From: Escherichia coli
GTDB lineage: Bacteria; Pseudomonadota; Gammaproteobacteria; Enterobacterales; Enterobacteriaceae
Length of the DNA stretch: 64,000 nt
Assembly (NCBI RefSeq): GCF_011045215.1
Contig: NZ_CP049201.1
Direction: 5' to 3' (one strand)
Both the position numbers and the translations under genes were made by a program. Positions 282 through 64,000 of the stretch are shown here, piece by piece (position 1 is the stretch's first letter; each line of letters opens with the position of its first letter). Under the pieces are notes generated by a model. The model was not told the origin of the DNA and searched no databases. It saw only the letters and a program-made list of their open reading frames with translations.

Positions 282-294
282 AATTAATATCCCC

Positions 295-912
295 TTAAAT
301 TAAAAACAGGCCGCACGGTTTGCCGATTTCCCAGACAACGTTACCGCCATCCTCTTTTTTCACCGTCAGGTTTCCGTCAACTGAAACCATCAGCAGCTTA
401 ATATCCACTTTCGGATTAGCGCCGGGTGATCCCGAATAAACATCAACCATGTTTTTCGTCAGATCCCACACAAAACCACTGGCAGCAACGGTGTTATTGC
501 CATCAGCCAGCGCAACAACTTCTGCACTGACAGGGAGAGGAATGCGGGCACCTGAGCCAACGCGGTAATAGTGAACAAAGCCACCCGCAAGATATAACGG
601 CACCGGATTATCCGGCGTGGTAATGCCATGAAATGCCTGATTAAAGACCGTAAAGGCGTTACATGCGTTTTGTGTAGCCTGCTTAATTACCGCGCCGTTA
701 ACGCTGTCTTTCGCGGGAGCAATGCACTCCATAATGCCAACGCCACCCCATACCGGTTCAGTGATTTTGCTGTCCAGTCGACCGGAGCAAAGTTGCAGAC
801 GAATTGCCGGATCATCCTGCGCATCCCCCTGCATCAGCCCACGGGATTCGACGTTAAAAAGGCCAACAAATGCTCCACGGTTTTTAAACGGATGAAAATT
901 AATATCAGCCAT
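295..912 (-). CDS. phage head protein (decoration- or capsid-associated), 205 aa
   Basis: ORF in head module between the scaffold/protease gene and the next structural gene; function assigned by position only. Confidence 0.4.
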   Translation of the reverse strand: MADINFHPFKNRGAFVGLFNVESRGLMQGDAQDDPAIRLQLCSGRLDSKITEPVWGGVGIMECIAPAKDSVNGAVIKQATQNACNAFTVFNQAFHGITTPDNPVPLYLAGGFVHYYRVGSGARIPLPVSAEVVALADGNNTVAASGFVWDLTKNMVDVYSGSPGANPKVDIKLLMVSVDGNLTVKKEDGGNVVWEIGKPCGLFLI

Positions 913-2227: not shown

Positions 2228-3041
2228 GTTTGCCCTTCTCCGTTAAAAATTCGTCGGGTAGTTTCTGAGGGGCGTAGATCGGCAGTGCATCGCAACTGCA
2301 ATAAACCTCCTCCCCGGCAGCAGTGATTTCGTCATAAAAACCATATACGGGCTTAATCAGCCCCTGCTCCAGCGCCCACGAATCGCGGAGGAGATAAATT
2401 TTCTCGTCGCGCTCTTTGTGGTCCTGTCGGTATTTGTAGCCCGGACGCCGCCAATTCGAATGCCAGCGCAGAGCAATCGCTCCACTCTGAACAGCCAGCA
2501 GATACTTAACGTTGCTTGCCAGCTTATGCCCCTGGTCAATTGCCACCCGACGACTGATAAAATCCATATCCTTCACGGATTTCTGAAACCCGGCCTTCAC
2601 TTCCCGGCGATCAATTTCGCTCACCCCGTCAGGCGGAATGGACGTAACCCAACCCTGAAAACGCTGTATGGTTTTCTCGATGGCCTGTTCTCGGTTGAGT
2701 TTTATCAGGTTGGCACTGGCGAAAATTCGCCTGTCGAGTTCCTTGCGAAACTCAGGTTTCAGTTTTTCAACAGTGATTTTTTTAGGGCCGTCAGGAGGCT
2801 GATCCCGTAATGCCCCGCCGTCGATGACAAGACGGCTGTAGATAGCGGTGAGGTGTTTTCTGGCTACGGTATCATCAGGGGTTTCTCGCTGAGCGGCTAC
2901 ACGGAGTTTCCGGCACCATTCGAGCAATGATTTTTCGCTATCCCACCCGTGATTTACGTAGTAGTTAACGGCATCCGTCAGAACCTCATACAGCGTCCTG
3001 ATCCGTTTCTTCTTCCTCACCGCCCGGCTGGAAATTGCCAT
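2208..3041 (-). CDS. phage head morphogenesis protein (Mu F / SPP1 gp7-like minor head protein); start uncertain
   Basis: ORF immediately downstream of portal in late operon; track ORF (2208-3179) overlaps portal so an internal start is assumed. Confidence 0.35.
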   Translation of the reverse strand: MAISSRAVRKKKRIRTLYEVLTDAVNYYVNHGWDSEKSLLEWCRKLRVAAQRETPDDTVARKHLTAIYSRLVIDGGALRDQPPDGPKKITVEKLKPEFRKELDRRIFASANLIKLNREQAIEKTIQRFQGWVTSIPPDGVSEIDRREVKAGFQKSVKDMDFISRRVAIDQGHKLASNVKYLLAVQSGAIALRWHSNWRRPGYKYRQDHKERDEKIYLLRDSWALEQGLIKPVYGFYDEITAAGEEVYCSCDALPIYAPQKLPDEFLTEKGKREFNRA

Positions 3042-4425
3042 CAGGCGTCTCCTGCTTCGGTGGTTCATAATTCGCCAGCGCGTCCACATCAATGATGAGT
3101 GGAGCTTCGCCATAGGTTTGCGTGGCATTAACAAGGCTTGCCAGCCATTCAGTGACGGCGGCACGGTTTTCAGGATCAACCTGTGGCGACACGGCAGAGA
3201 AAAGTGCTATCGCCTGTTGAATCACTTTACTGTCGCTTTCCCGGCGTTTGTCCGGCGACTCCTCCACCAGCTCCTGCCATGTCGCGGTAAATTCACGTCG
3301 CCACTGGTAAAACGTGGTTTTATAGTCATCAGTTATGATGTCCGGGTAATCATTTTTCAGCGACTGATAAAATTCCTCGTTCCAGGCGATGTACTGCACC
3401 AGGCGTTCGAAATAATCCATCACGGGTTCAATCTGCTGGCGTACACCATCGATATACTGGCTGATGGCTTTCGAATCTTCGGTCCCCTCACCGAAACCAT
3501 TCGAAAAGGCTTCCTCTTTGATGAGGATCGCCGGAACGTCACTCCCTGACGCAATATCGGAAATAATATTGTCGCGTGCAGCGTTTAGCGCACCATCGAT
3601 GTTTTGTAGATTTAGCGAGGTAACGTCCTCATCCTTCCCGATACTAAGCACACCTTTATTTTTTGCCTCTTTGACGTTTTCCCTTTTTCGTCCCGTGGCG
3701 GCAGCCATGATCCCGTCAAGTTTCGAACCGTACTGCACAACTTTAGCTACCAGTACGCCCGCCTTCTGGCTGACGAGATCATTCGCCTCCATCGTGTTGA
3801 TATAGGATTTCAGGGAATAAAGAACGCGCTGAAACACACTTCGTCCGGTGAATCCGAACGATGAACTCTGAAACTCCAGATAAATCGGTGTGCCGTTGAA
3901 GATTTTCAGTGTGCGTGACGGATGCCAGTCTTTCCCACCAATCTTCAGTTTTTTATTGGCTTCCTGGAAAAACGGGCTGTTGGGGTTCTGGTCAGTCACC
4001 ATCGAACCGGAAGCGTTCAACGGGTCCCACGCGTTGATATACACGTCATCTTCTGTCAGTCCGAACGTCGGAAGCGGTTCACGACATGGAACGCTGTCGG
4101 TGCCCACGCCGATCGCTGCAGCACCGTAGCAACGAGACAGAAAAAACAGATTTTTAATCTTCTCGTTGACCTTCATGCGTTCCCATACCTCCTGAAAACG
4201 CCTCACAACCCTCTCGTCAGGGTCTGTCTCCACGTTATACTGGCGCGGCTTACACATCGCCATCAGTATGGGTTTTTCGACAAGTTTTCCGCCCAGAGGA
4301 TGGAATTGCCACAGCTGCTTACACAATTCATAGCCAATGTCGGTTCCCGGCTGAATTTCTTCAGCCTCAAGAATACGCATCAGTGCCGAACCGAGGCCGC
4401 CAGTAATCTCGATCTCTGCCATCAA
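2986..4425 (-). CDS. phage portal protein, 479 aa
   Basis: Large ORF directly downstream of terminase large subunit with acidic C-terminus; canonical position of portal. Confidence 0.55.
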   Translation of the reverse strand: MMAEIEITGGLGSALMRILEAEEIQPGTDIGYELCKQLWQFHPLGGKLVEKPILMAMCKPRQYNVETDPDERVVRRFQEVWERMKVNEKIKNLFFLSRCYGAAAIGVGTDSVPCREPLPTFGLTEDDVYINAWDPLNASGSMVTDQNPNSPFFQEANKKLKIGGKDWHPSRTLKIFNGTPIYLEFQSSSFGFTGRSVFQRVLYSLKSYINTMEANDLVSQKAGVLVAKVVQYGSKLDGIMAAATGRKRENVKEAKNKGVLSIGKDEDVTSLNLQNIDGALNAARDNIISDIASGSDVPAILIKEEAFSNGFGEGTEDSKAISQYIDGVRQQIEPVMDYFERLVQYIAWNEEFYQSLKNDYPDIITDDYKTTFYQWRREFTATWQELVEESPDKRRESDSKVIQQAIALFSAVSPQVDPENRAAVTEWLASLVNATQTYGEAPLIIDVDALANYEPPKQETPDGNFQPGGEEEETDQDAV

Positions 4426-4439
4426 AAATATCCTGATTT

Positions 4440-5768
4440 TTACAACTCCGCGTAATTACCGTGCGCGATGATCAATCCATAGGTGTAACAATCGAAAAGG
4501 TCATCAGCACGTTTATGCGCGTCTTTGTCTGCCAGGTGGAACCCGGCGATTTGTTTGATGAGGTGGTTTGCGGTTGTGCGCTTGAATGAAACGGTTTTGT
4601 CGTAAGCCTCGCGGGTAATTTTGCATTTACCCTGGTAATGGTGGCTGGAAGCCAGCACCGCGCGCTCGTCTTTCCCTTTGCTGGTTAACGCTGATTTAAT
4701 CGGCGTCATATCCCAGCCTTCGGTTTCCGCTTTCTGGTTGAGGATTGCGCCCATTGCGGCATCCTCCATGAATACCCCCTGACTCCCCAGGCGCGGGCGG
4801 CAGAGTTGCGCCAGCCGCTCGAGGTTGTCATAAACACCGGGGATATACTCAGGAAGCAGCGACGCTTTAATTTGCGTCACATCCCAGTCGATAACGGTCA
4901 GTTTCGGCTCATCGGAATACGTGGACTCATACGCGAAGTAAACCACGCCTGTCCCGTCGTTCTCCGTCCCGCCTTTCAGCGCCGTATCCATTACCGCAAA
5001 AATCATGTCGCAGTGTCGCGGCATCTCAACCGGCTGGCCATCCACCAGCAGCTTATCGACATCGAGTAACGCGTCTTTGGACCAGTCTACGAACTCTGCA
5101 AGATATTCCTGCTGCCAGACGCGCGGATCGGATTTCTTCTCCGTTTCCTCCAGTTCTTCTTTCGGAATATACGGATTCGATGAAGTTGGCGCATGGTGCA
5201 TAACAAATCCCAGGGATTCATCGTGGCATATCGCGTAGAAAAAATTGCTCTCGTCGATACCGTTTGGTGTGGAAAATACCCACGCACAGCCGCGGTAATC
5301 GACAAGCGTCGGGCGTATCGCTCGGGGCCAGATTTCCTCGAGCATTTCCGGCGATTTAGTGAATGCGGCCTCATCAATCAGCACAGCGTGATATTTACGC
5401 CCACGCCCGGCCAGTTTGTTATTGTCCGTTACCCAAAAGTCGATGCGCCCCCCATTACGGAGAATGATGCGCTTTTCATTTTTTGACTGACTGAGGATCA
5501 GCGGTTGCAGAACGGCGCTAATTTCATCCCAGATTTCCTGGTACTGGCGGTATTGCGCGGTAAAAATCCCCACCCTACCCGCGATAAGTTGCCCGGTGGT
5601 AGGAACGGCAAATTTCCGCGTAGCGAAACTGGTAGCGATGTTCACCAGCATCACCGTTTTACCCCAGCGACGACCACAGCATACCGCGTGGAAGCGTTCC
5701 TCTATTGCCGCCGTCCATGCAGCTATTTGCCCCTCATGAGGTTTTGGGAGGTAGATTTCAATCGACAT
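4440..5768 (-). CDS. terminase large subunit, 442 aa
   Basis: Walker A-like motif CGRRWGKT near N-terminus, acidic nuclease-like C-terminal half; follows the small-subunit gene with a 4-codon overlap. Confidence 0.75.
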   Translation of the reverse strand: MSIEIYLPKPHEGQIAAWTAAIEERFHAVCCGRRWGKTVMLVNIATSFATRKFAVPTTGQLIAGRVGIFTAQYRQYQEIWDEISAVLQPLILSQSKNEKRIILRNGGRIDFWVTDNNKLAGRGRKYHAVLIDEAAFTKSPEMLEEIWPRAIRPTLVDYRGCAWVFSTPNGIDESNFFYAICHDESLGFVMHHAPTSSNPYIPKEELEETEKKSDPRVWQQEYLAEFVDWSKDALLDVDKLLVDGQPVEMPRHCDMIFAVMDTALKGGTENDGTGVVYFAYESTYSDEPKLTVIDWDVTQIKASLLPEYIPGVYDNLERLAQLCRPRLGSQGVFMEDAAMGAILNQKAETEGWDMTPIKSALTSKGKDERAVLASSHHYQGKCKITREAYDKTVSFKRTTANHLIKQIAGFHLADKDAHKRADDLFDCYTYGLIIAHGNYAEL

Positions 5769-6849
5769 TATCCACTCCCGGCATCGGCAGAGAGTTGTGG
5801 ATAATTATTTCGTTATTCTCACCACCCACGCCTTTTTTGAGGTTTTCAATCTCAGTGCGCAGCTTTTCGTTGCGAAGCCTCAGTCCTTCAAGCTCCAGAT
5901 CATTGCGACTGTCAGTTGCACCACCAGCAGAACTTCCTTTCGTCGCCATTATCAGCTTGATAAGTTCGCGCCGGGCGGCAGCCTTATCCTCCAGCAGGAT
6001 CTCAACACCAAATTTCCCGAGCTTTGCCCCTGCATATAATTGTCGCGCATCCCCATCAAGCAGAGTGGTATCAGCCATATAAAGCTGTCCCGTTCCCTCA
6101 CCGCAGCACTTCGGACAATCCGGATTGGGTATGGCGTTATCAACAAAGCCGAGGCCTCCATATTCCGGCTCGGGTTTGCCATCTCTGGAGGCCTGTGCCG
6201 CTGCCTTATCGAATTCTGCAATATCACGCCACTGGTAGAGGTGATTCTCGCCCCAGCAATAACGGCAGTTAACACGGCGAAATTGTGCCAACTGATTGGG
6301 GTCGGCCTGGACAATGGCCATCAACTGACTCACCAGTAAATCCAGGTCTGCGGTATAGCGTTTCTGATACTGATTGCGGAAGTAGCTGATAGCACGATAA
6401 ACCCTGGCATTTCTAAGCATACGGCTGGCGTTGCTGTTAGCTGTCGCACCTTGCCCCTCATAACCAGCCAGTCGGTATGCCTCTGTCGGCTTTTTCCCCT
6501 GAGCAACAAGCATCGCAAACTTAGCCTGCTGGTCAGAAATGCCGAATTCATCGGGGCAGAACGAAAATTCCTCCGCGTCGCCCTCATTCAGGCACGCATC
6601 GGATACTGGCTTTTTTTTCTGAGATTTTCCGTTCCGCTTTTGCGCAGTCTGCGCAGATTTTTTCTGCGCACTTTGTTGCGCAGTTTTGCGCATTTCTGTC
6701 TGCGCATTTTTCGGAGGTTTTTTGATGTAACGACGGGCTGTTGCGTAATTCAGTCCCCTTGCCTCACACCATGCCACCGGGGATACACCGGAGCGGGTGT
6801 ATTCAGCAATATATTCCTGCTGCAACGCCCCCCAGTCCGGTCTGCTCAT
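5758..6849 (-). CDS. terminase small subunit-like protein, 363 aa
   Basis: N-terminal HTH-like region, basic Lys/Gln-rich linker, position immediately upstream of terminase large subunit. Confidence 0.5.
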   Translation of the reverse strand: MSRPDWGALQQEYIAEYTRSGVSPVAWCEARGLNYATARRYIKKPPKNAQTEMRKTAQQSAQKKSAQTAQKRNGKSQKKKPVSDACLNEGDAEEFSFCPDEFGISDQQAKFAMLVAQGKKPTEAYRLAGYEGQGATANSNASRMLRNARVYRAISYFRNQYQKRYTADLDLLVSQLMAIVQADPNQLAQFRRVNCRYCWGENHLYQWRDIAEFDKAAAQASRDGKPEPEYGGLGFVDNAIPNPDCPKCCGEGTGQLYMADTTLLDGDARQLYAGAKLGKFGVEILLEDKAAARRELIKLIMATKGSSAGGATDSRNDLELEGLRLRNEKLRTEIENLKKGVGGENNEIIIHNSLPMPGVDNVD

Positions 6850-7062: not shown

Positions 7063-7990
7063 CCGGCACGCTGCCAGAGACTCGACTTTCGAATACGGAA
7101 TCATTTGTCACCCCCATTGATATGCAGGGTGTCTTCTTCCTGTATTTTTCGTGAAGGATTTTTACTGCAGCGTTGTTCCAGGTGACCTGATGGTGAATGC
7201 GTTTATGGCTGGCCCCCATCAGTGAGATTTTTACGCACGAGGGCGCATACATGACGGAGTAAAAACTTTTAACGTAGGTTCCGGAATCCAGATACAGCTC
7301 GGTCATTCCGCCGCTGTTTTTCTGCGTCTGTTTCTGCCCTAACTGGACAGCACCGATCGTCATAAACAATTCACCACAGCGACCGAGATTCGTGTACGTA
7401 TTCACATCCTCGTTAATGCGCCCCATGAATGAGAACGGTCGATCAACCGAACAGATAAAGCTGTTCATTGCCTTGCGTTTCACCCACGAAGCATGGCCGC
7501 CATTGTCACCAAGAAAATCCCCGCCCTGCGACATAGCGATGGAAAGCGCAGGTATTGATTCGTAGTACGCCAGCATTTCAGAAAGGATCGCATCCAGTTT
7601 TCTTATCGGGAAATAGGCCTGGTCATAGTTGCGATCCACCCGAAACTGAAACTCGTGATAATCATCATCGAGCTGAATGAAGTATTTACACCCGACCAGT
7701 TTTGCCAGGTCGAAACAGGCATTACGGGCGTAAAAAATTGAGCGGCGATCACCGAAATTATCGGCTTCGTCAAAACGACTGGCTATATCGGCTTTGGAAA
7801 ACACCAGCACCTGTTCACCAAATTCAGCTATGTACTGATGCCGTGTCTTATCTTCATCATCAACAACGATAAAAATTTTCCCGGTATAGCCAGCACGACG
7901 CAACGTCCGGTAAGTCAGAACTTTGTCCGGTCGCCCGTGAGTCAGAATAAAGGCGCAAAAATCATCACGCATATTCCTCCTCCCCGCCAT
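7040..7990 (-). CDS. hypothetical protein with GT-A-like (nucleotide-diphospho-sugar transferase-like) motifs, about 310 aa
   Basis: N-terminal FILTHGRPD...IFIVVDDED and a later LDDDY (DXD-like) motif resemble GT2-type glycosyltransferases; translationally coupled to the upstream ParB-like gene. Confidence 0.35.
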   Translation of the reverse strand: MAGRRNMRDDFCAFILTHGRPDKVLTYRTLRRAGYTGKIFIVVDDEDKTRHQYIAEFGEQVLVFSKADIASRFDEADNFGDRRSIFYARNACFDLAKLVGCKYFIQLDDDYHEFQFRVDRNYDQAYFPIRKLDAILSEMLAYYESIPALSIAMSQGGDFLGDNGGHASWVKRKAMNSFICSVDRPFSFMGRINEDVNTYTNLGRCGELFMTIGAVQLGQKQTQKNSGGMTELYLDSGTYVKSFYSVMYAPSCVKISLMGASHKRIHHQVTWNNAAVKILHEKYRKKTPCISMGVTNDSVFESRVSGSVPDDCTTNR

Positions 7991-8753
7991 GCATGATCTC
8001 CACCATACGCTGCGTCATCCGGACAAAACCATTTTCGATGGCTTGCTGATAATCAATGATCACCAGTGCCGACTCCTCAAAAAGGCCCTGAATTTCAGCG
8101 GGGGCGTGAGCGTAATAGTCTGCAATTCTGCTGAAATTAAACACCGTGTGGCGTTCTGCCGCGCACAGGAGGAATTTTTCGATATCAGGCTCAAGGGACG
8201 CCGTACGTATCCGGCTGACCAGCTCCTGAGTTTTCGTATCGTCGTACAGTTCACTGATATCCGGTTCATCCCCTGACGGCTCATAAACAGGCGTATCAAT
8301 TTTCGTCGTGTACGGCTCATCCTCATTCGCTGTACCTGGCAAAACATCCGTTAATAGTTCGTCAATTTCTGTCGGGCAGAATCCTGTCAGGGAGATATCA
8401 AAATCAGCATTGATTAGGTCCGACAGCTCCATCCGTAACAGATCTTCATCCCAGCCAGCACTCATCGGCAGGCGATTATCAGCCAGGCGGTACGCCTTTT
8501 TCTGATCATCCGTCAGACCAGACAGAACAATGACCGGAACCGAATCCATTTTGAGCGCCTCAGCCGCCATAACACGCCCGTGCCCCGCAATAATTTCACC
8601 CTTTTCATCAATCAGCACCGGATTTGTCCAGCCGAATTGCTTAATGCTTTCAACCAGCTGTGTCACCTGTTCAGGAGAGTGTGTCCTTGCATTGTGCACA
8701 TACGGAGACAACTCTTGTAACAGTCGATAGACAATATTCAATTTTTCGCTCAT
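7965..8753 (-). CDS. ParB-like nuclease domain protein, 262 aa
   Basis: ParB/Srx-type N-terminal domain (…VHNARTHS…IIAGHGR motif); start at the ATG preceded by a GAGG Shine-Dalgarno. Confidence 0.6.
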   Translation of the reverse strand: MSEKLNIVYRLLQELSPYVHNARTHSPEQVTQLVESIKQFGWTNPVLIDEKGEIIAGHGRVMAAEALKMDSVPVIVLSGLTDDQKKAYRLADNRLPMSAGWDEDLLRMELSDLINADFDISLTGFCPTEIDELLTDVLPGTANEDEPYTTKIDTPVYEPSGDEPDISELYDDTKTQELVSRIRTASLEPDIEKFLLCAAERHTVFNFSRIADYYAHAPAEIQGLFEESALVIIDYQQAIENGFVRMTQRMVEIMHGGEEEYA

Positions 8754-9226
8754 ACAACCTCGCTTTATGAATAAAAAACTAACAGCAGCCAGTGGAGAGC
8801 ATTTATCATTAACATTTACAGATAAGATGACGTACATCATTGAAACGCCATTAAGCTATATACCTGCAGCATTTGTAGTTGCACTCCGCAACTCTGCGAC
8901 TACGGTTATAAAAGCATTGGCAACTTTTGCCACCGGCAAATCTTCCATGGATTTCCTCTGCCGGTTTTTTATTTTCGTCGATGCATAACATTGCATTTAC
9001 ATCAATACCGTCTATTGTCATAAGTATGTTGTACCGATGCTCGGGTGATATTGGCGGTCTTCGCCAGCCGGTTCTGTGTAGTTGCTCCCTGTGACCGGTT
9101 TTTTATTTCTCACATTACAGCAGCCCCTCACCAAAGGGCTGCTGTAATGCCTGCTGTTACTCACAAATCAGACCATCATGATCACCGCTCATCCCTGGAC
9201 TGTTCCCGCAGTCGGAGTTTTGTTTT

Positions 9227-10975: not shown

Positions 10976-11277
10976 AGAGCATTCATCGTGTAGTAATAGA
11001 ATTATATTTATATATGGTCGCCACCAGAATGAGTCGTCAACCTACAAAGCCATCCTGGCTTACTGTACGTGTGCGCATGGAACAGGTAACGACTCATTCT
11101 GCTAACGACGTTTACAAGTAATAATCACATACCATTATGTAATACAAAAAAAAGCAGCACTGAAACTGTAACCGTTCAGATATTACAGCATGAAGAAAAA
11201 CAATAGTACCTACAAAGCTGTTCTCCGCGAAAATTCGCCAGTGCTGATAAAGCTATGCCTCGTTTGTTTTACAGGAG

Positions 11278-11349
<72 letters not shown>

Positions 11350-11352
11350 ATA

Positions 11353-11428
<76 letters not shown>

Positions 11429-22985: not shown

Positions 22986-24887
22986 ATGAGCATAAAACAA
23001 CACTTCCTGTTACGGAAAGCGAAAAAATCATCCGGTGAACCTGACGCAGTTCTGTGGGCAAGCGACGATCTCGAATCGACCAGTGCCACTCTGGACTACC
23101 TGATTGTTAAGTCAGGTAAAAAACTGAGCAACTATTTTAAAGCTGTTGCTACGAATTTTCCTGTCGTTAACGACCTGCCCCCAGAAGGGGAGATCGATTT
23201 TACGTGGTGTGAACGCTATCAACTCGGCAAGGACTCCATCACCTGGGAACTAAAACCAGGTGCAGCACCAGACGACGTTCACCATCAGGAGAATATCCCG
23301 GAAACTGAAGAACTGGCTGGAGACCAGGAAGAAAACGCGCAGGCGGACGCTCACGGGGATTGCCAGGATTGCGAAGTTCCTGTAGCCACACTCAGTCTTA
23401 CTCATCGTTTCCTTCATCTCTTCTTTTTCGGTCAGATGGAAGGTGGAAAATACAGTAGTCACGCCACGCCGGAACAGCGCAATACCGTCATCCGGATGGA
23501 GCTGGATACGGAGGACAGCTACCTCCAGAGTCTGCTTACAGCAGTACGCTCTCATCCTGAACTGGATAAGCTGACAAACCACCATCTTGGCAGACTGGCG
23601 GAGTCTGTATCCAGAGTGTTTACCCACACAGAAACCCGTTGCATCAGCCCCGCTGAATTCGACAAATTCATTTCCACCTGGATGAAAACTGATTATCTGG
23701 ATCAGGGATTACTGACAAAAGAATGGGCGAAGGGAAACTGCGTATCTGAAATCAATCGCACCCCGTCGGGCGCTAATGCCGGTGGCGGTATCCTTACCGA
23801 CCGTGGAGAAGGTTTTGTCCATGATGATGCATCAGTAGCGCGTGACGTAGCCGCTGGCGTACTGGCACGTTCAATGGATATCGATATTTACAATCCACAT
23901 CCAGCACACGCTAAACGTATTGGGGAAATTGTCGCTGAAAATAAACCGCCATTTTCTGTTTTTTTCAGCAAATTCATCACCATGCCTGGCCACAAGGATT
24001 TCTCCCGCGCCATCGTGGTTGCGTCCGTGAAAGAAGCGCCAGTCGGTATAGAGGCTACCCCACACCATGTCACTGAATATCTGAACAGGGTGCTGACTGA
24101 AACCGATCATGCCAACCCTGATCCGGAAATCGTGGATATTGCCTGCGGTCGCTCCTCTGCCCCGATGCCACAGCGTGTAACAGAAGAAGAAAAACCGCAA
24201 CCATCTTGCGCAATGGCAGATGAACAGGCAACGGCTGAAACAGTGGAACCGGATACAAGTGAACATCATCAGGACACGCAGCCGCTGGATGCCAAGTCAC
24301 AGGCCGATGCGAAATATCAGAAACTGCGGGAAGAACTCCATGAAGCCCGGAAAAACATTCCGCCCAAAAATCCTGTCGATACAGACAAAATGCTGGCAGT
24401 CCATCGCGGTGAGTTCGTTGAAGGAATTAGCGACCCGAATGATCCGAAATGGGTGAAGGGAATTGAAACCCGCGATTCTGTGAACCAGAACCTGCCAGAA
24501 ACGGAAAAAACCAGTCAGGATGTGAAACAACCTGAGCCAGTAGTGCAACGGGAACCGGAAATAGTCTGCACCGCCTGCGGTCAGAGCGGTGGCGGCAACT
24601 GCCCTGATTGTGGCGCGGTGATGGGCGACGCAACATATCAGGAAACATTCGATGAAGAGAATCAGGCTGAAACTCAGGAAAATGATCCGGAGGAAATGGA
24701 AGGCACTGAACCATCATTAGAAAAACTCGACTGGAAAAGACAAGTGGTGATTGCGGCTGTTTATGGTTTGTGTGCGAATCCTGCAGGTATAGCCTCAGCG
24801 CCATTAATTCCGGGTATTGCAATGATGATTGCCAACAAGCTTGAAAATTTTGGGGTGACGGATGATGAGCACATACCCGATTTTTGA
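22986..24887 (+). CDS. recE: RecE N-terminal region homolog lacking the C-terminal exonuclease domain, 633 aa
   Basis: N-terminus [26 protein letters not shown] and internal blocks ([50 protein letters not shown]) match my recollection of Rac RecE residues 1 to about 600; ORF ends where the gam-like gene begins. Confidence 0.55.
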
Positions 24888-27353: not shown

Positions 27354-28589
27354 ATGTCTAAATTACCAACAGGTGTCGAGATTCGAGGTAAATACATTCG
27401 CATCTGGTTCATGTTTCGAGGAAAACGATGCCGGGAAACATTGAAAGGCTGGGAGGTTACTAACAGTAACATTAAAAAAGCCGGGAATTTAAGAGCGTTG
27501 ATAGTTCATGAAATCAATTCCGGTGAATTTGAGTATTTAAGACGTTTCCCCCAGTCCGGCACTGGGGCAAAAATGGTGACAACTAGGGTCATAAAAACGT
27601 TCGGGGAGCTTTGTGATATCTGGACAAAAATTAAAGAGACAGAGTTAACAACAAACACAATGAAGAAAACGAAATCACAATTAAAAACACTCAAGATAAT
27701 AATTTGTGAGAGTACCCCGATATCGCATATTCGTTATAGCGATATCTTAAACTACCGGAATGAACTGCTGCATGGAGAAACGCTTTACCTGGATAATCCA
27801 AGATCCAACAAAAAAGGAAGAACCGTGCGCACAGTTGATAACTATATCGCCCTACTCTGTTCGCTGTTACGTTTTGCGTATCAGTCGGGATTTATATCAA
27901 CCAAACCATTTGAAGGAGTAAAAAAATTACAGCGAAACAGAATAAAGCCTGACCCGTTATCTAAAACAGAATTCAATGCATTAATGGAAAGTGAAAAAGG
28001 ACAGAGCCAGAACTTATGGAAATTTGCCGTTTACTCAGGACTTCGTCACGGGGAACTGGCAGCTCTGGCGTGGGAGGATGTGGATCTCGAGAAGGGAATT
28101 GTGAATGTCAGAAGAAACCTGACGATACTTGATATGTTCGGTCCCCCAAAAACAAATGCCGGGATCCGGACAGTAACACTACTGCAGCCTGCTCTTGAAG
28201 CACTGAAGGAGCAATACAAACTGACCGGACATCATCGCAAAAGCGAAATCACCTTTTATCATAGGGAGTACGGCAGAACCGAAAAGCAAAAACTGCATTT
28301 TGTTTTCATGCCCAGGATGTGTAACGGAAAACAGAAACCTTATTACTCGGTAAGCAGTTTGGGTGCGAGATGGAATGCAGCAGTAAAACGTGCTGGTATT
28401 CGCCGCCGTAATCCGTACCATACGCGGCATACTTTTGCCTGCTGGCTGTTGACGGCAGGAGCGAACCCGGCGTTTATAGCCAGCCAGATGGGGCATGAAA
28501 CTGCGCAGATGGTGTATGAAATTTACGGTATGTGGATTGATGACATGAACGACGAACAGGTAGCCATGTTGAATGCGCGGTTATCGTAA
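27354..28589 (+). CDS. intR: tyrosine-type site-specific integrase (IntR-like), 411 aa
   Basis: C-terminal catalytic region with R...HTRHT...Y residues; last phage gene before ttcA. Confidence 0.85.
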   Translation: MSKLPTGVEIRGKYIRIWFMFRGKRCRETLKGWEVTNSNIKKAGNLRALIVHEINSGEFEYLRRFPQSGTGAKMVTTRVIKTFGELCDIWTKIKETELTTNTMKKTKSQLKTLKIIICESTPISHIRYSDILNYRNELLHGETLYLDNPRSNKKGRTVRTVDNYIALLCSLLRFAYQSGFISTKPFEGVKKLQRNRIKPDPLSKTEFNALMESEKGQSQNLWKFAVYSGLRHGELAALAWEDVDLEKGIVNVRRNLTILDMFGPPKTNAGIRTVTLLQPALEALKEQYKLTGHHRKSEITFYHREYGRTEKQKLHFVFMPRMCNGKQKPYYSVSSLGARWNAAVKRAGIRRRNPYHTRHTFACWLLTAGANPAFIASQMGHETAQMVYEIYGMWIDDMNDEQVAMLNARLS

Positions 28590-28640: not shown

Positions 28641-29576
28641 ATGCAAGAAAATCAAAAGAATACGAAGAAAGAGATATACAATCTGAACAAATTACAAAAA
28701 CGCCTGCGTCGTAACGTGGGCGAAGCCATTGCTGACTTCAATATGATTGAAGAAGGCGATCGCATCATGGTTTGCCTCTCCGGGGGTAAAGACAGCTATA
28801 CCATGCTGGAGATTCTGCGCAATTTGCAGCAAAGCGCGCCAATCAATTTTTCGCTGGTGGCTGTTAACCTCGATCAAAAGCAACCGGGCTTCCCGGAACA
28901 CGTTCTGCCCGAGTATCTTGAAAAGCTGGGCGTTGAGTACAAGATTGTTGAAGAGAACACTTACGGTATCGTGAAAGAGAAGATTCCAGAGGGCAAAACC
29001 ACTTGCTCACTGTGTTCTCGGCTACGTCGCGGTATCCTTTATCGCACCGCAACGGAACTGGGGGCGACGAAGATCGCGTTGGGCCACCATCGTGACGATA
29101 TCCTGCAAACGTTGTTCTTAAATATGTTCTACGGCGGTAAGATGAAAGGTATGCCTCCGAAACTGATGAGCGATGATGGCAAACATATCGTTATTCGTCC
29201 GCTGGCCTACTGCCGCGAGAAAGATATTCAGCGATTTGCCGATGCAAAAGCGTTCCCGATTATTCCGTGCAACCTGTGCGGTTCACAGCCTAACCTGCAA
29301 CGTCAGGTGATTGCTGACATGTTGCGTGACTGGGATAAACGTTATCCAGGGCGTATCGAGACGATGTTCAGCGCGATGCAGAATGTGGTGCCGTCGCATC
29401 TGTGCGATACCAACCTGTTCGATTTCAAAGGCATCACCCACGGTTCTGAAGTGGTTAACGGGGGTGATCTTGCGTTTGATCGCGAAGAGATCCCACTACA
29501 ACCGGCGGGCTGGCAGCCAGAAGAAGATGAAAATCAGTTGGATGAGTTACGGCTGAATGTGGTTGAAGTGAAATAA
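28641..29576 (+). CDS. ttcA: tRNA 2-thiocytidine(32) synthetase TtcA
   Basis: PP-loop SGGKDS and CxxC motifs; 311 aa. Confidence 0.9.
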
Positions 29577-55426: not shown

Positions 55427-56425
55427 ATGTCCCCTACTATTTATGATATTGCCAGGGTTGCAGGCGTATCAAAATCCACCGTATCACGCGTGCTGAATAA
55501 GCAAACCAATATCTCCCCGGAAGCGCGCGAAAAAGTGTTACGGGCCATTGAAGAATTACAGTATCAACCAAACAAGCTGGCCCGCGCGCTGACCTCTTCG
55601 GGTTTTGATGCCATTATGGTGATTTCTACCCGTTCGACCAAAACTACGGCGGGTAATCCGTTTTTCTCTGAAGTTTTGCATGCCATCACCGCCAAAGCTG
55701 AAGAAGAAGGTTTCGACGTGATATTGCAGACGTCGCACACCCCGGCAGAAGACTTACAAAAATGTGAAAGCAAAATTAAGCAGAAAATGATTAAAGGCAT
55801 TATTATGCTAAGTTCGCCAGCGGATGAGTCATTTTTTGCCCAACTTGATAAATACGATATTCCTGTGGTGGTGATTGGCAAAGTTGAAGGTCAATATGCC
55901 CATGTTTATTCTGTCGATACCGATAATTTTGGTGACAGCATTGCGTTGACCGATGCGTTAATTGAAAGTGGACATCAAAATATTGCCTGTCTGCATGCAC
56001 CGCTTGATGTCCATGTTTCAGTGGATCGGGTAAATGGTTATAAGCAGAGTCTGGAAGATCATAATATTGCAGTGCGTGATGAATGGATTGTTGATGGCGG
56101 TTATACCCATGAAACAGCACTGCAAGCAGCACGGCAATTATTAAGTCAGTCACCGTTGCCTGAGGCAGTGTTTGCCACTGACAGCCTGAAATTAATGAGC
56201 ATTTATCGTGCGGCGGCAGAGAAAAACATTGCTATTCCGCAGCAGTTAGCGGTGGTGGGTTATAGCAATGAAACGCTGTCATTTATTTTAACGCCTGCAC
56301 CGGGCGGCATCGATGTTCCGACGCAGGAGTTAGGTCAACAAAGCTGTGAGTTATTATTCCGCTTAATTGCCGGAAAACCGTCACCACAAAATATTACCGT
56401 TGCCACGCATATGACGCTGAAATAA
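55427..56425 (+). CDS. ycjW: LacI-family transcriptional regulator YcjW
   Basis: N-terminal HTH ([18 protein letters not shown]) and periplasmic-binding-like fold. Confidence 0.8.
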
Positions 56426-56535: not shown

Positions 56536-57441
56536 TCAGAACGAGTAATTTACGCCGACACCTGCATAATGGAATTTATCGCTGCCGCCTTCGTCGTGAT
56601 CCTGCCACTCAAACGCGTATTCCAGCGAAATGGAAAGACCATTCTGGAAATCATAACCGTAAAATAAACCAACACGGTTAAAATCATGGCCTTCACGTTC
56701 AATATCATCCTGCCAGTCCCAGTTACTCCAGCGATCCAGCCCAATGCGCGTATACGGCGTCACCGAGTGGTTGCCGAGCGTCAGCGGCAAATAGGCGCGA
56801 ATTTCTTGCGTGGAAAACTCACCGTTATTGCGGCTGTCGTCCATATTGAAGCCGCGCTCGAGATAATAGTTCACTCGCAAAGCAACCGTTTCGTTGAAGG
56901 TATATTGCAGACCTGTTTCCGTTTCGACACGGGTATCAGCGTAACCGGTCGTGTTCAAATCGTTGGCAAATTTATACATCGACAACCAACCGTTGAAACG
57001 TAGATCGTCAGTCAGTTTCACATCCCAGTCTGGCGCGATTTTCCAGCGCTGCATATTCGCCGTGTCTTTACCCGGTTCATCAACGTAGTGATAACCATAA
57101 TTACGGAAACCGCCGGTCAGACCGAAACTGAAATCATCGCTTTCGAGGAACTGATAATGCACCTCCAGCTCCGGGCGATCAAACCACGTTCCACGTTTAC
57201 CCGCGCTATAATCTACCGGCCCTTCCTGATAATAGGCCAGAGAAATTCTCCACGGCCCGTTGGCGGCATTAAAATAGACAGAAGGCTCCGCCAGCCCATC
57301 CATATCTTCGCCATAACCCTCGACGTTTTCTATTTCGTACATCGCGCCGATATTAAAGTGCCAGTCGTTCTTTTCCTCGGCCTGTGCGCAGGCCATTCCC
57401 GCACACATCACCAGTGCGGTACAGGGTAATAACTTTTTCAT
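56536..57441 (-). CDS. ompG: outer membrane porin OmpG
   Basis: Signal peptide, beta-barrel pattern, C-terminal F; 301 aa. Confidence 0.9.
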   Translation of the reverse strand: MKKLLPCTALVMCAGMACAQAEEKNDWHFNIGAMYEIENVEGYGEDMDGLAEPSVYFNAANGPWRISLAYYQEGPVDYSAGKRGTWFDRPELEVHYQFLESDDFSFGLTGGFRNYGYHYVDEPGKDTANMQRWKIAPDWDVKLTDDLRFNGWLSMYKFANDLNTTGYADTRVETETGLQYTFNETVALRVNYYLERGFNMDDSRNNGEFSTQEIRAYLPLTLGNHSVTPYTRIGLDRWSNWDWQDDIEREGHDFNRVGLFYGYDFQNGLSISLEYAFEWQDHDEGGSDKFHYAGVGVNYSF

Positions 57442-57485
57442 TATTGTTCCTTGTATTATCCTGAGGGAATGCCTTCCCCCTGTAT

Positions 57486-58568
57486 TTAGCGAATTGCTAT
57501 TTCCGTTTCTGCATCAAAGAAATGACATTTCGTCATATCAAAATGAATAGTGATATTTTCTCCTGCATGATAATCATTTAACGCACCAGCACGGACCACT
57601 AACTCGTGCCCCCCAACCGTGGTGTAGAGCATAAATTCCGCACCGGTTAATTCTGCCACGCTAATTTTGGCGGAAATGTTATTTTCCTCTTGCGCGTCCG
57701 GATGAATATCTTCCGGGCGTATTCCCATCACGATGGGCTTATGCAAACTTTCCTGTGTTTTCAGAACCGCTAATTTCTCTTCGGGAATGGTTAATTTAAG
57801 CGTTTCCGTAACGAATTTATCGCCATCGATCGTGCCGCGAATAAAATTCATCGCTGGTGATCCAATAAATCCGGCAACAAACATATTCGCGGGTTGGTTA
57901 TAAACGGTTTTCGGCGCACCTACTTGCTGAACAATCCCGTCTTTCATAATCACAATCCGCGTCGCCATGGTCATCGCTTCGGTCTGATCGTGGGTCACGT
58001 AGATCATGGTGGTGTTCAGTTTCTGATGCAGCTTGCTGATCTCTGCGCGCATTTGTACGCGCAGCTTGGCATCAAGGTTAGAGAGCGGTTCATCCATTAA
58101 AAACACGCCCGCATCGCGCACAATCGCCCGCCCGAGCGCCACACGCTGGCGTTGCCCGCCGGAAAGCGCGCCCGGCTTGCGTTTCAGGTACTCACGCAGG
58201 CCGAGAATTTGCGCCGCCCAGTTCACCCGCTCATCAATCACCTCTTTGGCGATTTTTTGCATCTTCAGGCCAAACGCCATGTTGTCGTAAACCGTCATAT
58301 GCGGATACAACGCGTAGTTCTGGAACACCATTGCGATATTGCGTGCTTTGGCTGGAACGTCATTCATTCGTTTGCCGTCGATCAACAGATCGCCGCCGCT
58401 GATCTCCTCAAGCCCGGCAATCATGCGCAGGGTGGTCGATTTACCGCAGCCCGACGGGCCGACAAATACGATGAACTCTTTATCGGCAATTTCCAGGTTG
58501 AAGTCCTTCACCACATGCACCTGGTTATCGTAGATTTTTTGAATATGTTGTAACGAAAGCTGAGCCAT
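57486..58568 (-). CDS. ycjV: ABC transporter ATP-binding protein YcjV (intact 360 aa reading frame)
   Basis: Walker [10 protein letters not shown], signature LSGGQRQR, Walker B LMDEPLS, MalK-like C-terminal domain. Confidence 0.8.
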
Positions 58569-58581
58569 GTTGATTCCTTTG

Positions 58582-59241
58582 CTATACGTTTTGCCAGAAG
58601 GCCGATAACCGCGACCAGGTCAGGGAGTCCGTTGAAGGCAACAGTAATTGCGCCCCGGTTAAGCCCGCGCCGATCCCCACCGAGCGCATACCGCTGGCGT
58701 TAATGGCGTCAATGCCCGCCTGCGCATCTTCAATGCCGATACATGCCTGCGGCGGCACGCCCAGCCCGGCACAGGCAGCGAGAAAGATTTCCGGATCCGG
58801 TTTCGAGTTTTTAAGTTGGGAAGCATCCGCGCAGAAGGTGAAAAACTCGCGTAGCTCCAGCGCCGCTAAAATCGTCGGCGCATTCAGGGAGACAGAAGCC
58901 AGCCCTACCGGGATCTGCTGTGCGCGGAGATCTGCCAGCAAAGGCCGGATCCCCGGCAGAACGGCATTAACCGTCAGTTCGCGCAGTGAGTGGACGTAGA
59001 GCAGATTTTTGCGATACGCCAGTTGCGCCCGCTCCTGCGAGTTAAAGTCGCCCTCTTTGCCCCCGTATTGCAGAATGCGCCGCAGAGACTCATCGCGGCT
59101 AATCCCTTTTAGGGATTCGTTAAACTGCGCATCAATGCTGATGCCAATTTCAGCGGCAATCTGCTGCCACGCCTGGAAATGCAGATGCGCGGTATCGGTG
59201 ATTACACCATCCAGATCGAAAATTACCCCTTGCAGTTTCAT
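58582..59241 (-). CDS. ycjU: beta-phosphoglucomutase YcjU
   Basis: HAD motif DLDGVITDT near N-terminus. Confidence 0.85.
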
Positions 59242-61505
59242 TCATCCTCCTGATGTGTGGTAGCGGTCCCATTGAAGGGCAAAATAAAATCACCCAAACA
59301 GAAAACAGATTCTTCAGCCACGGATATAAGCTGCCCGTTCAAACGCAGTGAAACGGGCGCAGAAGTTCGAATCGCAATACGCTGCGCGTCGAGCGTGACC
59401 TGTAATTCGCAGCCCTGCCAGAACAGAGGGAAAGACAACTGTTGCCACTGCTCAGGTAACGCCGGATTGAGATGCAATTCACCGTCACGCACGCTCACCC
59501 CGGCAAAACCCTGAATCGCCCCCAGCCAGATAGCGCCAGTTGCGGCAGCATGGATACCATCATCACAACTATGCGGATCAGCACCAAGATCGATTTCAGT
59601 CCCCTCGCGCCAGAACTGATAACTTTGGGTCAGCAGGCCACAGCGTGCGGCAACAATGCCGTGGATTGCTTTACTCAGTGAAGAGTCGTGAATGGTGCGC
59701 GGTTCATAAAATTGCAGATTGGCAAGACACGATGCCGCTGAGAACTGCTCCGGCAGCATGTAATTGAGCATCACCACATCAGCTTGTTTGAGGATTTGCA
59801 TCTCGTTCACTTCTGCGCGTGAATAATCCAGCAGAATGGTTTGCTTCCCCGCCGCCGCTTTGTATTTCGCCAGATTAATCGCCGGCTTAGCCATAAGCGA
59901 ATCATCCTGCGGCAAAACGCCGTCGGGCTGAATTTCTGGCAGCCGCAGTTCTTTAAGGAACATTTCGGCGCGATGGATAAACGCATCGTCGCTACAGCCA
60001 AACTGGCGGGCAATACTCAGCGCCTGCTGGACGTTGTAATACGCCATATAGCTGGTGAAGGCGTTATTATTGACATGTTCGGTATATTCGTCAGGCCCAA
60101 TAACATCATGAATTTCCAGACGGTCGTTAACCCTCACCGCGCGGCTAATCCAGAACTTTGCAGTTTCCAGAAGTAGCGCCATGCCTTCATGCGCAATGAA
60201 ACTTTCATCCCCCGTGGTCTGCCAGTATTGAATAACCGCCCAGGCGATATCGGCCACCAGATGATGTTCCGCCTGCGCCGAGGCCACTTTTTGCCGCAGC
60301 CCGGTGCGAATGTTAATGGCGGCAAATTCCGGCGTCTCTTCTTCGCCGCTGCGCGCGCTTTCCCACGGAAATAGCGCGCCCTGCCAGCCGTTGCGTCGCG
60401 CTTTCTCCTGCGCGCCTGGCAAGTTGTGCCAGCGATAACGCAGTAAACTTCGGGCAACCGTCGGATCGCTAAACAGATGAAACGGTAACAAAAATACTTC
60501 TGTATCCCAGAAAACGTGGCCTTTGTAGCCTTCGCCGGTTAAGCCTTTTGCCGCAATGCTGCTGCGCTCGTCGTGGGCAGGCGTCATGATGCGCAGATGA
60601 TAAAGCGCATAATCTAACGCTTGCTGATCGTGCGCTTCGCCGCCATTTACCGTGATACGACGTTTCTGCCACCATTGACGCCAGTTTTCTGTTGATACTG
60701 CAAGAAGTTGGTCGTAACTCTGCTGCGCGCACATTTCAAGCTGGCGAAGCGACGCGCTGCCCCACTCGTCTAAAACGGCTTGCCTGTCATCCCGCCAGTC
60801 GATCCACACCAGTTTTTGCAACGTCACTGTCTCGCCTGCATGAAGCTGCGCACTGGTATGTTGCTGCAAACGGCGCTCTTTGGCGGTATAGCATTGCTGC
60901 ACATCACCGCTCACCATACAGCAACAGCTGATGGCCACATCACTGCGTCCATCCTGGGTGGTGTAGATCCCCTGCATCAGATGCTGACCAAACACCCGCA
61001 CCTGGGTTTCGTCGAGATGTTGGCGACCGTGGTTGGTTTGCGTGGCGTCGATACCTGTTGAAATCAGCACTGACGCGTCGGCGTCCAGTGGCGTAATAGT
61101 GATTTCCAGCGCAATGAGCGGCAGTTGGTCTGCCGACACAAAGCGACGGCTGGCGATGGTGTAACCTGCGCCGTTGCTGGTACGCCAGACAACGTTGCGG
61201 CGTAATTCGCCACTGGCAAAGTCAAGCTCACGCTGCCAGGCTTCGTGGGATAACGAGAAAACCTCACCATTTATGGCAATCTCCATCCCCAAGATATCAG
61301 GCAGGTTCACCAGTTCGTTGATTTCACCTTTTCCCGCCCGATGATACAGCCCCGCCAGATACATCCCTCGCGTCTGGCGCGTGTAATCTTCTTCATGGCT
61401 GGCGCGAAGCCCAAGATAGCCGTTCCCCTGCGCCATCAGCGATGCATACTTGTTCAGGGTATGCTGGCTGAAATGGGGTTCTGATAACGTTACTGGCCTG
61501 GTCAT
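59238..61505 (-). CDS. ycjT: GH65 disaccharide (kojibiose) phosphorylase YcjT
   Basis: 755 aa; GH65 family size and operon context. Confidence 0.8.
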
Positions 61506-62557
61506 AATTCCACACGCGTCCCTGTTTCTGCGGATTGATAAAACGCCGCCACCAGTTGCTGGATGATGTACCCCTGCTCGGCGTCGGCTATCATCACGGG
61601 CTTGCCCTGTACGTGATTGATAAAGGCTTCCATGCTGCGCAAATGGCGGTTGTCGTCTGCCATTTCCCGTTGCATCAGCGTCATTAATTCACCGTTGTTA
61701 TCGGTGTAGATATGTGCTGGAAACAGCGTCGCACCGGCTTTATCACCACAAAAGCTGACGTTCATAATCGACTGTTCGCGGATGTTGAGCGCAAATGACG
61801 TTTCCAGCCACAGAATGCCGCCGTTATGAAATTCAATGGTGCCAAACAGCGAATCTTCGACGCTGTAAGTTGCCGGATCCCACTCGCCAAACTGACCGCA
61901 GCTCTTTTGCGGGCCGATCTTTTGAAAGCTATGCGCATTCACGCTTTTCACCGCCGGAAAGCCCAGCACATACATCGCCGCATCCAGCATATGAATACCG
62001 ATGTCGATCAGCGGGCCACCGCCCTGCAGTTCTTTATTGGTAAAGACACCCCAGCCGGGAACGCCGCAGCGACGCAGGGCGCGGGCGGTGGTAACGTAAA
62101 TCTCTCCCAAAACGCCGTTGGTCACCTGTTCACGCAGCTGTTGCGTATCGAGCGCAAAACGATGGTGAAAGTCGTAGGCCAGCACCTTGCCCTGTTTGCG
62201 CGCGGTATCGCACATTTCCCGCGCCTGTTCTGGCGTCATGGCGGGCGGTTTTTCGCACATCACATGGCAGCCCGCTTCCAGCGCCATCAGGGTATGTTCG
62301 TAATGAAAACGGTTAGGTGAGCAGACGCTAACCACATCAGGTTTCACCGCCAGCAGCATGGCCTGCGGATCGTCCCACACGGATGCATTCCCGTATTTTT
62401 CTGCCAGCGCCTGCGCCTGGGAAAGGCGGCTGTCACAGACAGCCACCAGTTCCAGATCGTTGCGGGTGCAGTAGTACGAAGCATGAACCTTATCCGCCAC
62501 CTGGCCTGCGCCTATTATCGCGACCCGCAGTGGAGAGCTTGTCATTGCACTTTTCAC
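61502..62557 (-). CDS. ycjS: Gfo/Idh/MocA-family oxidoreductase YcjS
   Basis: N-terminal Rossmann (VAIIGAGQVA). Confidence 0.8.
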   Translation of the reverse strand: MKSAMTSSPLRVAIIGAGQVADKVHASYYCTRNDLELVAVCDSRLSQAQALAEKYGNASVWDDPQAMLLAVKPDVVSVCSPNRFHYEHTLMALEAGCHVMCEKPPAMTPEQAREMCDTARKQGKVLAYDFHHRFALDTQQLREQVTNGVLGEIYVTTARALRRCGVPGWGVFTNKELQGGGPLIDIGIHMLDAAMYVLGFPAVKSVNAHSFQKIGPQKSCGQFGEWDPATYSVEDSLFGTIEFHNGGILWLETSFALNIREQSIMNVSFCGDKAGATLFPAHIYTDNNGELMTLMQREMADDNRHLRSMEAFINHVQGKPVMIADAEQGYIIQQLVAAFYQSAETGTRVEL

Positions 62558-62566
62558 AAAGACCTC

Positions 62567-63355
62567 TTAGCAGGTACGCAACCAGGTCAACGAATCACGG
62601 TACGCCTGGGCAGGATCTTCTGCCCGGATACGCCCTTCATACACCACATAACCCTGATAGTTATCGGCGCGCAGCTGTTCAAACAGCGCGTGGAAATCGA
62701 GGGTGCCGCTGCCCGGCTGGTAACGATGGTTATCGGCAATATGCACATGACCGAGCAAGTCGCGGTTGTCATGCAGCGCCTGCGCCAGGTTATCTTCTTC
62801 GATGTTCATGTGATAGAAATCGCCGATAATCTGCACATGTTTAAGATTGTTTTCGACGATGTAACGACGAGCATCGGCGAGGGTGTTGATCATATGATCC
62901 TGATAGCGGTTTAACGGTTCGAGATACACCACGGTTCCGGTACGCGCGGCGACCTGTTCCAGTACGCGCAGGGAATCACTCACCATTTTGCGGTCGCCGT
63001 CCAGGCTACGCGGCGAGGTCATCGGCGGTAAGCGGAAGGTAAACATGCCCCATGCTGCCGGAACGACGATACCTTTACCCCCCACTTCTGCCAGCGCTTC
63101 GAGAATGCGTTCGATCTGCTTTAAGCCATTAAGACGACGCTCTTCGATAAAGTCACCAATCCAGCCGTCATAGCCGCCGCAGGCGGTGGTCACCGGTAAA
63201 CCGGTTTCTTTGATCGCCGCTTTGACTTCTTCGATGTTGTTGACCAGCAGTTTGCCGTCAATCTCAAAACCATCGAAGCCCATCTCTTTGATATAACGAA
63301 ATTTCTCCAGAATATTTTCCGGAAAGAATGCCTGATTCTGTGTGCCTATTTTCAT
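62567..63355 (-). CDS. ycjR: sugar phosphate isomerase/epimerase (TIM barrel) YcjR
   Basis: 262 aa from MKIGTQNQAF; track ORF is N-terminally over-extended. Confidence 0.8.
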   Translation of the reverse strand: MKIGTQNQAFFPENILEKFRYIKEMGFDGFEIDGKLLVNNIEEVKAAIKETGLPVTTACGGYDGWIGDFIEERRLNGLKQIERILEALAEVGGKGIVVPAAWGMFTFRLPPMTSPRSLDGDRKMVSDSLRVLEQVAARTGTVVYLEPLNRYQDHMINTLADARRYIVENNLKHVQIIGDFYHMNIEEDNLAQALHDNRDLLGHVHIADNHRYQPGSGTLDFHALFEQLRADNYQGYVVYEGRIRAEDPAQAYRDSLTWLRTC

Positions 63356-63372
63356 TTTTTCATTCCTTTGAA

Positions 63373-64000
63373 TTAAAACGTAACGCCCATTTTGATGCTC
63401 TGTTCCGGATGCTGATCGACATACTGCATGTAGCTTTCCGGGCTGTTGGCAAAGGTCACTACCGGGTCGATTAAATCTTCGCAATTGAGATAACCGTTCA
63501 TCAGCAGTTTCCAGCAGGTTTCTTCAATACGCTTACGGCTCCAGCGCGGATAATCCGGGTTCGGTTCGCTGCACGCGCGGGAGAAAACAATTTTGGCGTT
63601 ATTGAAATGCGCTTCGCGTCCGAGGTTAAAACCTTCAGCAAATGGTTTGGCAAACGCGACATAGGAGATGGTGCCGCCGTAGGCCAGACCGCGCAGTGCC
63701 GACTGCAGCGCGTCGGCGTAACCGCTGGTTTCGATAATCACATCGGCACCCTGCTTGCCGGTCAGCGTTTTGATCTCTTTGCCTACGTCAGTGCCAATGG
63801 GATTAAGGCAGAAATCCGCACCGTGACGACGAGCAATATCACAACGATGGGCAATAGGATCGACGCCAATTACCACCGACGCGCCAGCGCGTTTAGCCAG
63901 TTGGATGGCAATTTGACCGATCGCGCCAAGCCCTACCACCACTACAAAATCCCCTACGCGTACGTTGGCATCGCGAACGCCACTCATGGCGAACTGCGCC
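63373..64000 (-). CDS. ycjQ: zinc-type alcohol dehydrogenase-like YcjQ, C-terminal part (5' end beyond window)
   Basis: Rossmann GxGxxG (VVGLGAIG) of an MDR dehydrogenase; reading frame runs off the window end. Confidence 0.75.
   Translation of the reverse strand, partial: AQFAMSGVRDANVRVGDFVVVVGLGAIGQIAIQLAKRAGASVVIGVDPIAHRCDIARRHGADFCLNPIGTDVGKEIKTLTGKQGADVIIETSGYADALQSALRGLAYGGTISYVAFAKPFAEGFNLGREAHFNNAKIVFSRACSEPNPDYPRWSRKRIEETCWKLLMNGYLNCEDLIDPVVTFANSPESYMQYVDQHPEQSIKMGVTF

Follow-up and report, generated by a model that had tools for sequence, protein, structure and literature searches.

An intact ycjV gene in the ycj sugar-utilisation cluster of an Escherichia coli genome, and the one-base deletion that truncates it in K-12

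We describe here the ycjV locus in a 64,000-nt stretch of Escherichia coli DNA (contig NZ_CP049201.1; hereafter the window), where the listing of open reading frames (ORFs) gives a single uninterrupted minus-strand frame that runs from an ATG start to a TAA stop and encodes 360 aa (Table 1). The window is collinear, in reverse orientation, with positions 1375388-1388000 of MG1655 (97.1% identity over 12.6 kb), and the ORF can be identified as ycjV because its neighbours are full length relative to K-12 and lie in collinear order; its placement between ycjU (pgmB) and ompG, as in the E. coli reference, marks it as the orthologue. Since the gene shares both 98.6% DNA identity and synteny with MG1655 ycjV, chance resemblance is not an issue. 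It follows the TAG stop of ycjU (58582-58584) with an AAGGA Shine-Dalgarno sequence 7 nt 5' of its ATG, and 44 nt separate its own TAA stop from the next ATG, that of ompG, from which ycjW is divergently transcribed. The window stops within ycjQ, placing ycjM, ycjN, ycjO and ycjP beyond its end. In the nearest complete genome, that of the baboon isolate E. coli PapM-32-1 from the Gambia (99.6% identity over 20 kb, and a different strain from that of the window), the whole ycjM-ompG cluster, including ycjN, ycjO and ycjP, is annotated as intact.

Table 1. Features of the window discussed in the text, in order of position.
Feature	Coordinates	Strand	Remarks
ORF matching 'anti-CBASS Acb1 family protein'	2986-4425		Rac-type prophage
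Terminase	4440-5768 and 5758-6849		Rac-type prophage
ParB/Srx-like ORF	7965-8840		Rac-type prophage
Adjacent tRNA-Gly(TCC) and tRNA-Thr(TGT)	11277-11428	-	Prophage; downstream of lysis genes
recE-like ORF	22986-24887		Rac-type prophage; only 633 aa (1055 aa in closest relative)
Integrase intR	27354-28589		Rac-type prophage
ycjW, LacI-family repressor of the ycj operon	55427-56425	+	332 aa, intact; 98.5% identity, 332/332 aa; repressor role from PMC6599011
ompG, monomeric outer-membrane porin	56536-57441	-	301 aa, last gene of the operon; 98.3% identity, 301/301 aa
ycjV, ABC transporter ATP-binding protein (CUT1 / MalK-UgpC-MsmX type)	57486-58568	-	Intact; from ORF, Pfam, NCBIfam and synteny
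Codons 321-360 of ycjV (HELVV...EIAIR)	57489-57608	-	C-terminal half of TOBE_2; in frame here, out of frame as ymjB in K-12
G6 homopolymer (C6 on the + strand)	57609-57614	-	Codons G319-G320, gene nt 955-960; run from which K-12 has lost one base, complete in the window
ycjU-ycjV spacer	58569-58581	-	13 nt; contains Shine-Dalgarno AAGGA; upstream sequence ...GCAAAGGAATCAAC ATG
ycjU (pgmB), beta-phosphoglucomutase	58582-59241	-	219 aa, intact; tblastn 97.7% identity, 219/219 aa of K-12 YcjU
ycjT, kojibiose phosphorylase	59238-61505	-	755 aa, intact; 97.7% identity, 755/755 aa of K-12 YcjT; product name from annotation
Candidate YcjW operator, 14-mer TGGGACCGCTACCA	59258-59271	-	Within the 3' end of ycjT; 17-30 nt ahead of the ycjU start codon
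ycjS, ycjR and 3' part of ycjQ (guloside/glucoside dehydrogenases and epimerase)	61502-64000	-	YcjS 351/351 aa, YcjR 262/262 aa, YcjQ residues 143-350

Scans for sigma-70 promoters and terminators around ycjV returned no signal over shuffled expectation, an absence that is expected of an internal operon gene and adds no positive support. The ycjMNOPQRSTUV-ompG operon is repressed by YcjW, for which one reported ChIP peak precedes ycjM and another lies between ycjT and ycjU (PMC6599011). De novo motif analysis identified the 14-mer TGGGACCGCTACCA exactly twice within the MG1655 locus: one copy precedes the start codon of ycjM by 26 nt and the other that of ycjU by 30 nt, and both positions agree with these peaks. 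The motif, a near-palindrome around a central CG, has one exact match in the window and, judged by its position, is probably the YcjW operator, such that ycjU-ycjV-ompG would stand directly downstream of a second YcjW site, the one that precedes ycjU. The ycjV-ompG spacer also contains a perfect 5-bp-stem hairpin (57465-57478; GGGAAGGCATTCCC on the coding strand), with no T-run following it in the direction of transcription, which could be an element of mRNA processing or stability, or nothing.

The translated product displays the full set of ABC-ATPase motifs in canonical order, as is characteristic of a PF00005 nucleotide-binding domain: Walker A (GPSGCGKS, G37-S44), the Q-loop (Q83), the signature (LSGGQ, L135-Q139), Walker B with its catalytic Glu (VFLMDE, V155-E160), the D-loop (SNLDA, S163-A167) and the H-loop (H193). 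An initial annotation of this DNA had reported an intact 360-aa frame with all ABC motifs, and our analysis recovers the same frame at identical coordinates. Pfam models assign ABC_tran (PF00005; E = 1.4e-31), followed by OB_MalK at residues 236-288 (E = 1.7e-14) and TOBE_2 at residues 282-351 (E = 5.1e-10, 39.8 bits), the latter two exceeding their gathering cut-offs. A C-terminal OB/TOBE regulatory domain after the nucleotide-binding domain is the architecture of CUT1-type importer ATPases, in which this extension measures about 125 aa. Among NCBIfam models, the protein scores 484.9 bits against the UgpC-type subfamily NF008653 (cut-off 432) and 430.2 bits against the MalK equivalog NF008233, under the latter's cut-off of 568. 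From these assignments, YcjV is predicted to work like MalK without being a MalK orthologue.

Structural relatives place YcjV in the same context. E. coli MalK (1Q12, 2R6G; MalFGK2), with which YcjV aligns at E = 1e-99 (1Q12), belongs to the same fold class, has the same domain order (ABC_tran-OB_MalK-TOBE) and serves as a mechanistic template; an end-to-end alignment was also obtained with the structure of AlgS. The closest solved structure is that of Bacillus subtilis MsmX (6YIR; E = 3e-149), which aligns from end to end and has the same nucleotide-binding and C-terminal regulatory domains, at a published identity of 64% (PMC7658222). As MsmX is an orphan, multitask ATPase of CUT1 sugar importers, its closeness could be taken to mean that YcjV is likewise shared among several sugar importers, as MsmX and MsmK are in Firmicutes, rather than being a dedicated partner of YcjNOP. 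We consider this very improbable: YcjV is encoded within its own transporter operon, K-12 lives without it, and in the study of PMC7658222 it failed to complement an msmX null mutant, replacing MsmX for neither AraNPQ nor GanSPQ, and lacked the charged residues proposed as a multitask signature. The same study found ATPase activity in recombinant full-length E. coli YcjV (WP_000057985.1), an allele that differs from that of the window.

Compared with other copies from non-K-12 E. coli, the gene shows no difference of substance. That of O157:H7 Sakai ('ycjV: sugar transporter subunit') is the same gene, with the same 1083-nt length and neighbours, and that of PapM-32-1 (WP_000057972.1, 'ABC transporter ATP-binding protein') is 99.7% identical in DNA sequence and differs by one amino acid, at residue 152. 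This residue, three positions ahead of Walker B, is Asp in the window (codon at 58113-58115) and Glu in both PapM-32-1 and K-12; the change is conservative, since MsmX also has Asp at the aligned position.

The orthologous locus of K-12 differs in a more consequential manner. The initial annotation had given MG1655 ycjV as a pseudogene, and NC_000913.3 does annotate two abutting pseudogenes, ycjV (b1318, 1380821-1381789) and ymjB (b4524, 1381789-1381902), which together comprise 1082 nt as opposed to 1083 nt in the window. Global alignment of the two alleles yields 15 substitutions and one indel in 1083 nt, the sole gap falling in a homopolymer that is G5 in K-12 and G6 in the window, so that the K-12 gene, suspected by the same annotation of carrying a lesion missing here, is neither intact nor identical. 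The window copy is free of the K-12-type G5 frameshift. Because the alignment contains only one gap, of 1 nt, and the other 15 differences are substitutions, an IS insertion, a nonsense mutation and a larger deletion were each ruled out as the K-12 lesion. The K-12 frame reads ...TTVGGTS* and gives a product of 322 aa that ends at residue 320 followed by TS, without the last 40 native residues, the codons for which lie out of frame. Comparison of the substitutions revealed no secondary decay in K-12 ycjV beyond this lesion. In practice the K-12 gene is already treated as a pseudogene: metabolic engineering makes use of it as a neutral site for integration (PMC10380740, PMC11731478), and one set of mutation calls lists it as 'ycjV pseudogene (664/957 nt)' (PMC4786092).

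It might be argued that the 322-aa product still works as a transporter ATPase, lacking only a distal part of the regulatory domain, which would make the difference between the alleles immaterial. Consistent with this, the K-12 product retains full-scoring matches to ABC_tran (110.9 bits) and OB_MalK (54.9 bits). Furthermore, maltose and ethidium phenotypes have been claimed for a delta-ycjN mutant by a group whose primers were designed on the MG1655 sequence (PMC13053599), and these phenotypes, if real, would call for an energising ATPase. The lost residues, however, correspond to positions 41-76 of the 76-position TOBE_2 model; the match accordingly shrinks from profile positions 2-76 (39.8 bits) in the window to positions 2-40 in K-12, where its 20.6 bits fall under the cut-off of 21. 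The missing segment is also conserved, aligning to the final residue of MsmX (6YIR) and including a shared FDM.K.HFFD.ETE block. In MalK structures the C-terminal strands form part of a beta-barrel that provides a constitutive dimer contact, and the strands lost from K-12 YcjV would belong to such a barrel. In addition, EcoCyc and RefSeq curators, as well as PGAP, call the K-12 gene a pseudogene, and a passage of PMC6599011, citing Mukherjee et al. 2018, states that kojibiose minimal medium fails to support growth of MG1655, with or without YcjW. Taken against the retained domains, these observations render a working truncation improbable, and the derived deletion has probably cost K-12 the function of the gene.

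To place the two alleles within the species, 60-, 61- and 62-mers specific for G5, G6 and G7 and centred on the G run were compared with 5426 complete E. coli genomes, using an identity band of at least 99% that only exact matches reach. The G6 61-mer of the window was matched exactly in 4416 genomes, the G5 60-mer of K-12 in 370 and the G7 62-mer in one (13TMH22). Thus about nine in ten of the genomes that bear the locus (~88%) keep the exact intact 61-mer, and because the intact allele is the species norm, the initial suggestion that this strain retains the gene is better put as K-12 having lost it. NCBI E. coli records already include the exact 360-aa protein, in a cluster at 90% identity that comprises 3686 sequences. 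A sequencing or assembly artefact behind the intact frame was ruled out by the recurrence of the exact G6 61-mer in 4416 genomes and of the exact protein in NCBI. No megablast match to ycjV was obtained in 425 of the 5426 genomes (about 8%), a minority in which the cluster is absent or highly divergent. In the raw-milk-cheese isolate FAM21845, an IS1B insertion after gene nt 552 splits ycjV (locus 1001-2860), which is a second, independent route to inactivation of the gene.

The 60 G5 genomes listed, out of the 370, are overwhelmingly K-12 laboratory derivatives (MG1655, C600, DH5alpha, DH1, J53, NCM3722, HST04 and others). A lesion limited to K-12 was nevertheless ruled out by the occurrence of G5 (gene nt 955-959) on different allelic backgrounds in the non-K-12 genomes 95-3192, 2014C-3051 and 08-00022, which lie 15, 21 and 5 SNPs, respectively, from the K-12 allele and in each of which PGAP marks ycjV as 'frameshifted'. 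Repeated slippage at the run or, alternatively, homopolymer errors in assembly would account for these cases and for the single G7 genome. A recurrence of G5 on at least four backgrounds, K-12 included, together with the G7 genome, raises the further prospect that the run is a slippage-prone contingency site which switches the transporter on and off, the window having been captured in the ON phase. However, six G residues are short for phase variation, non-K-12 cases number only three (possibly four) among the 60 G5 genomes listed, and each is a single assembly open to homopolymer error, with no evidence of heterogeneity within a strain; such a switch therefore appears highly unlikely.

The pattern of substitution provides a complementary view. 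Across six ycjV alleles, with frameshifts repaired in silico, pairwise dN/dS ranged from 0.00 to 0.19 and substitutions were nearly all synonymous; between the window and K-12 there are 13 synonymous and 2 non-synonymous changes. Because dN/dS is this low and the changes are almost exclusively synonymous, YcjV is maintained by purifying selection in the species. This has a bearing on whether ycjV might be intact but silent, as part of an operon that is cryptic in nature and whose intactness carries no phenotype. Such a scenario would accord with the tight repression of the operon by YcjW in K-12, where strong induction is seen only in a delta-ycjW mutant (PMC6599011), and with the fact that the literature offers no proven natural inducer or substrate. 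Selection that keeps the protein and the prevalence of the intact 61-mer among locus-bearing genomes both speak against it, as does a secondary citation in PMC8009128 that names the intact ycjV of EHEC among the genes implicated in colonisation of the bovine gut, and we regard a silent operon as quite improbable.

Together, these lines of evidence make it very likely that the ycjV of the window is an ordinary wild-type allele encoding the ATPase subunit of a YcjNOP-V importer of the CUT1 type, and that K-12 carries a derived one-base deletion. The partnership with YcjNOP is suggested by gene clustering and the transport mechanism by homology to MalK and MsmX. If the MalK2 dimer of MalFGK2 is a guide, two copies of YcjV would dock on the permeases YcjO and YcjP, each binding and hydrolysing ATP through its Walker A and B motifs, Q-loop, LSGGQ signature and H-loop, while the OB/TOBE domain would keep the two copies joined as a dimer and may have a regulatory role. 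A sugar would cross the outer membrane through OmpG and be delivered to YcjO/YcjP by the lipoprotein YcjN, with ATP hydrolysis by YcjV driving its import; in K-12, the deletion in the G6 run truncates YcjV and removes half of its TOBE domain. An intact ycjV is already known: the reference annotation gives the K-12 ycjV/ymjB pair as pseudogenes, and databases contain the intact allele. The finding, being correct but ordinary, carries little weight as a discovery.

Which sugar such an importer would carry is a separate matter. The initial annotation had proposed that this strain may retain a functional transporter ATPase for the kojibiose pathway, of which the intact frame is confirmed and the connection to kojibiose reaches further than the evidence. 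YcjT is a phosphorylase of kojibiose, a sugar that also displaces YcjW from DNA in vitro (PMC6599011); the co-location of ycjT and this displacement are what the link between kojibiose and the transporter rests on. The link is not established: in thermal-shift assays YcjN responded neither to kojibiose nor to maltose or any other sugar tried (PMC11543891). It is conceivable that the G6-to-G5 frameshift explains why MG1655 cannot use kojibiose (or else glucosylglycerate or gulosides) for growth, in which case strains with an intact allele would import and use one such rare alpha-glucoside via OmpG and YcjNOP-V. We hold this to be unlikely, since the negative YcjN binding argues against kojibiose as the transported substrate. 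Were it true, it would reveal the physiological substrate of the ycj cluster, missed by studies based on K-12, and, as a minor corollary, would mark the G6 run as a recurrent inactivation hot spot.

In the literature on the ycj genes, ymjB and kojibiose, we found no discussion of the truncation of K-12 YcjV or of its relation to non-growth on kojibiose, and a search for ymjB itself returned nothing informative. Caution is warranted in reading the existing biochemistry and genetics of the cluster, given that the work on YcjT and YcjW, the YcjN structure and the kojibiose growth tests all used K-12 sequences or strains, in which the ATPase is truncated.

At its other end, the window contains a Rac-type lambdoid prophage (1-28589) adjoining ttcA (28641-29576). 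The prophage is a mosaic, with only one of the 5426 complete genomes, OkiPb01716, covering at least 80% of its first 25 kb (97.0% identity), and the adjacent tRNA-Gly(TCC)/tRNA-Thr(TGT) pair is also annotated in the related prophage of that genome.
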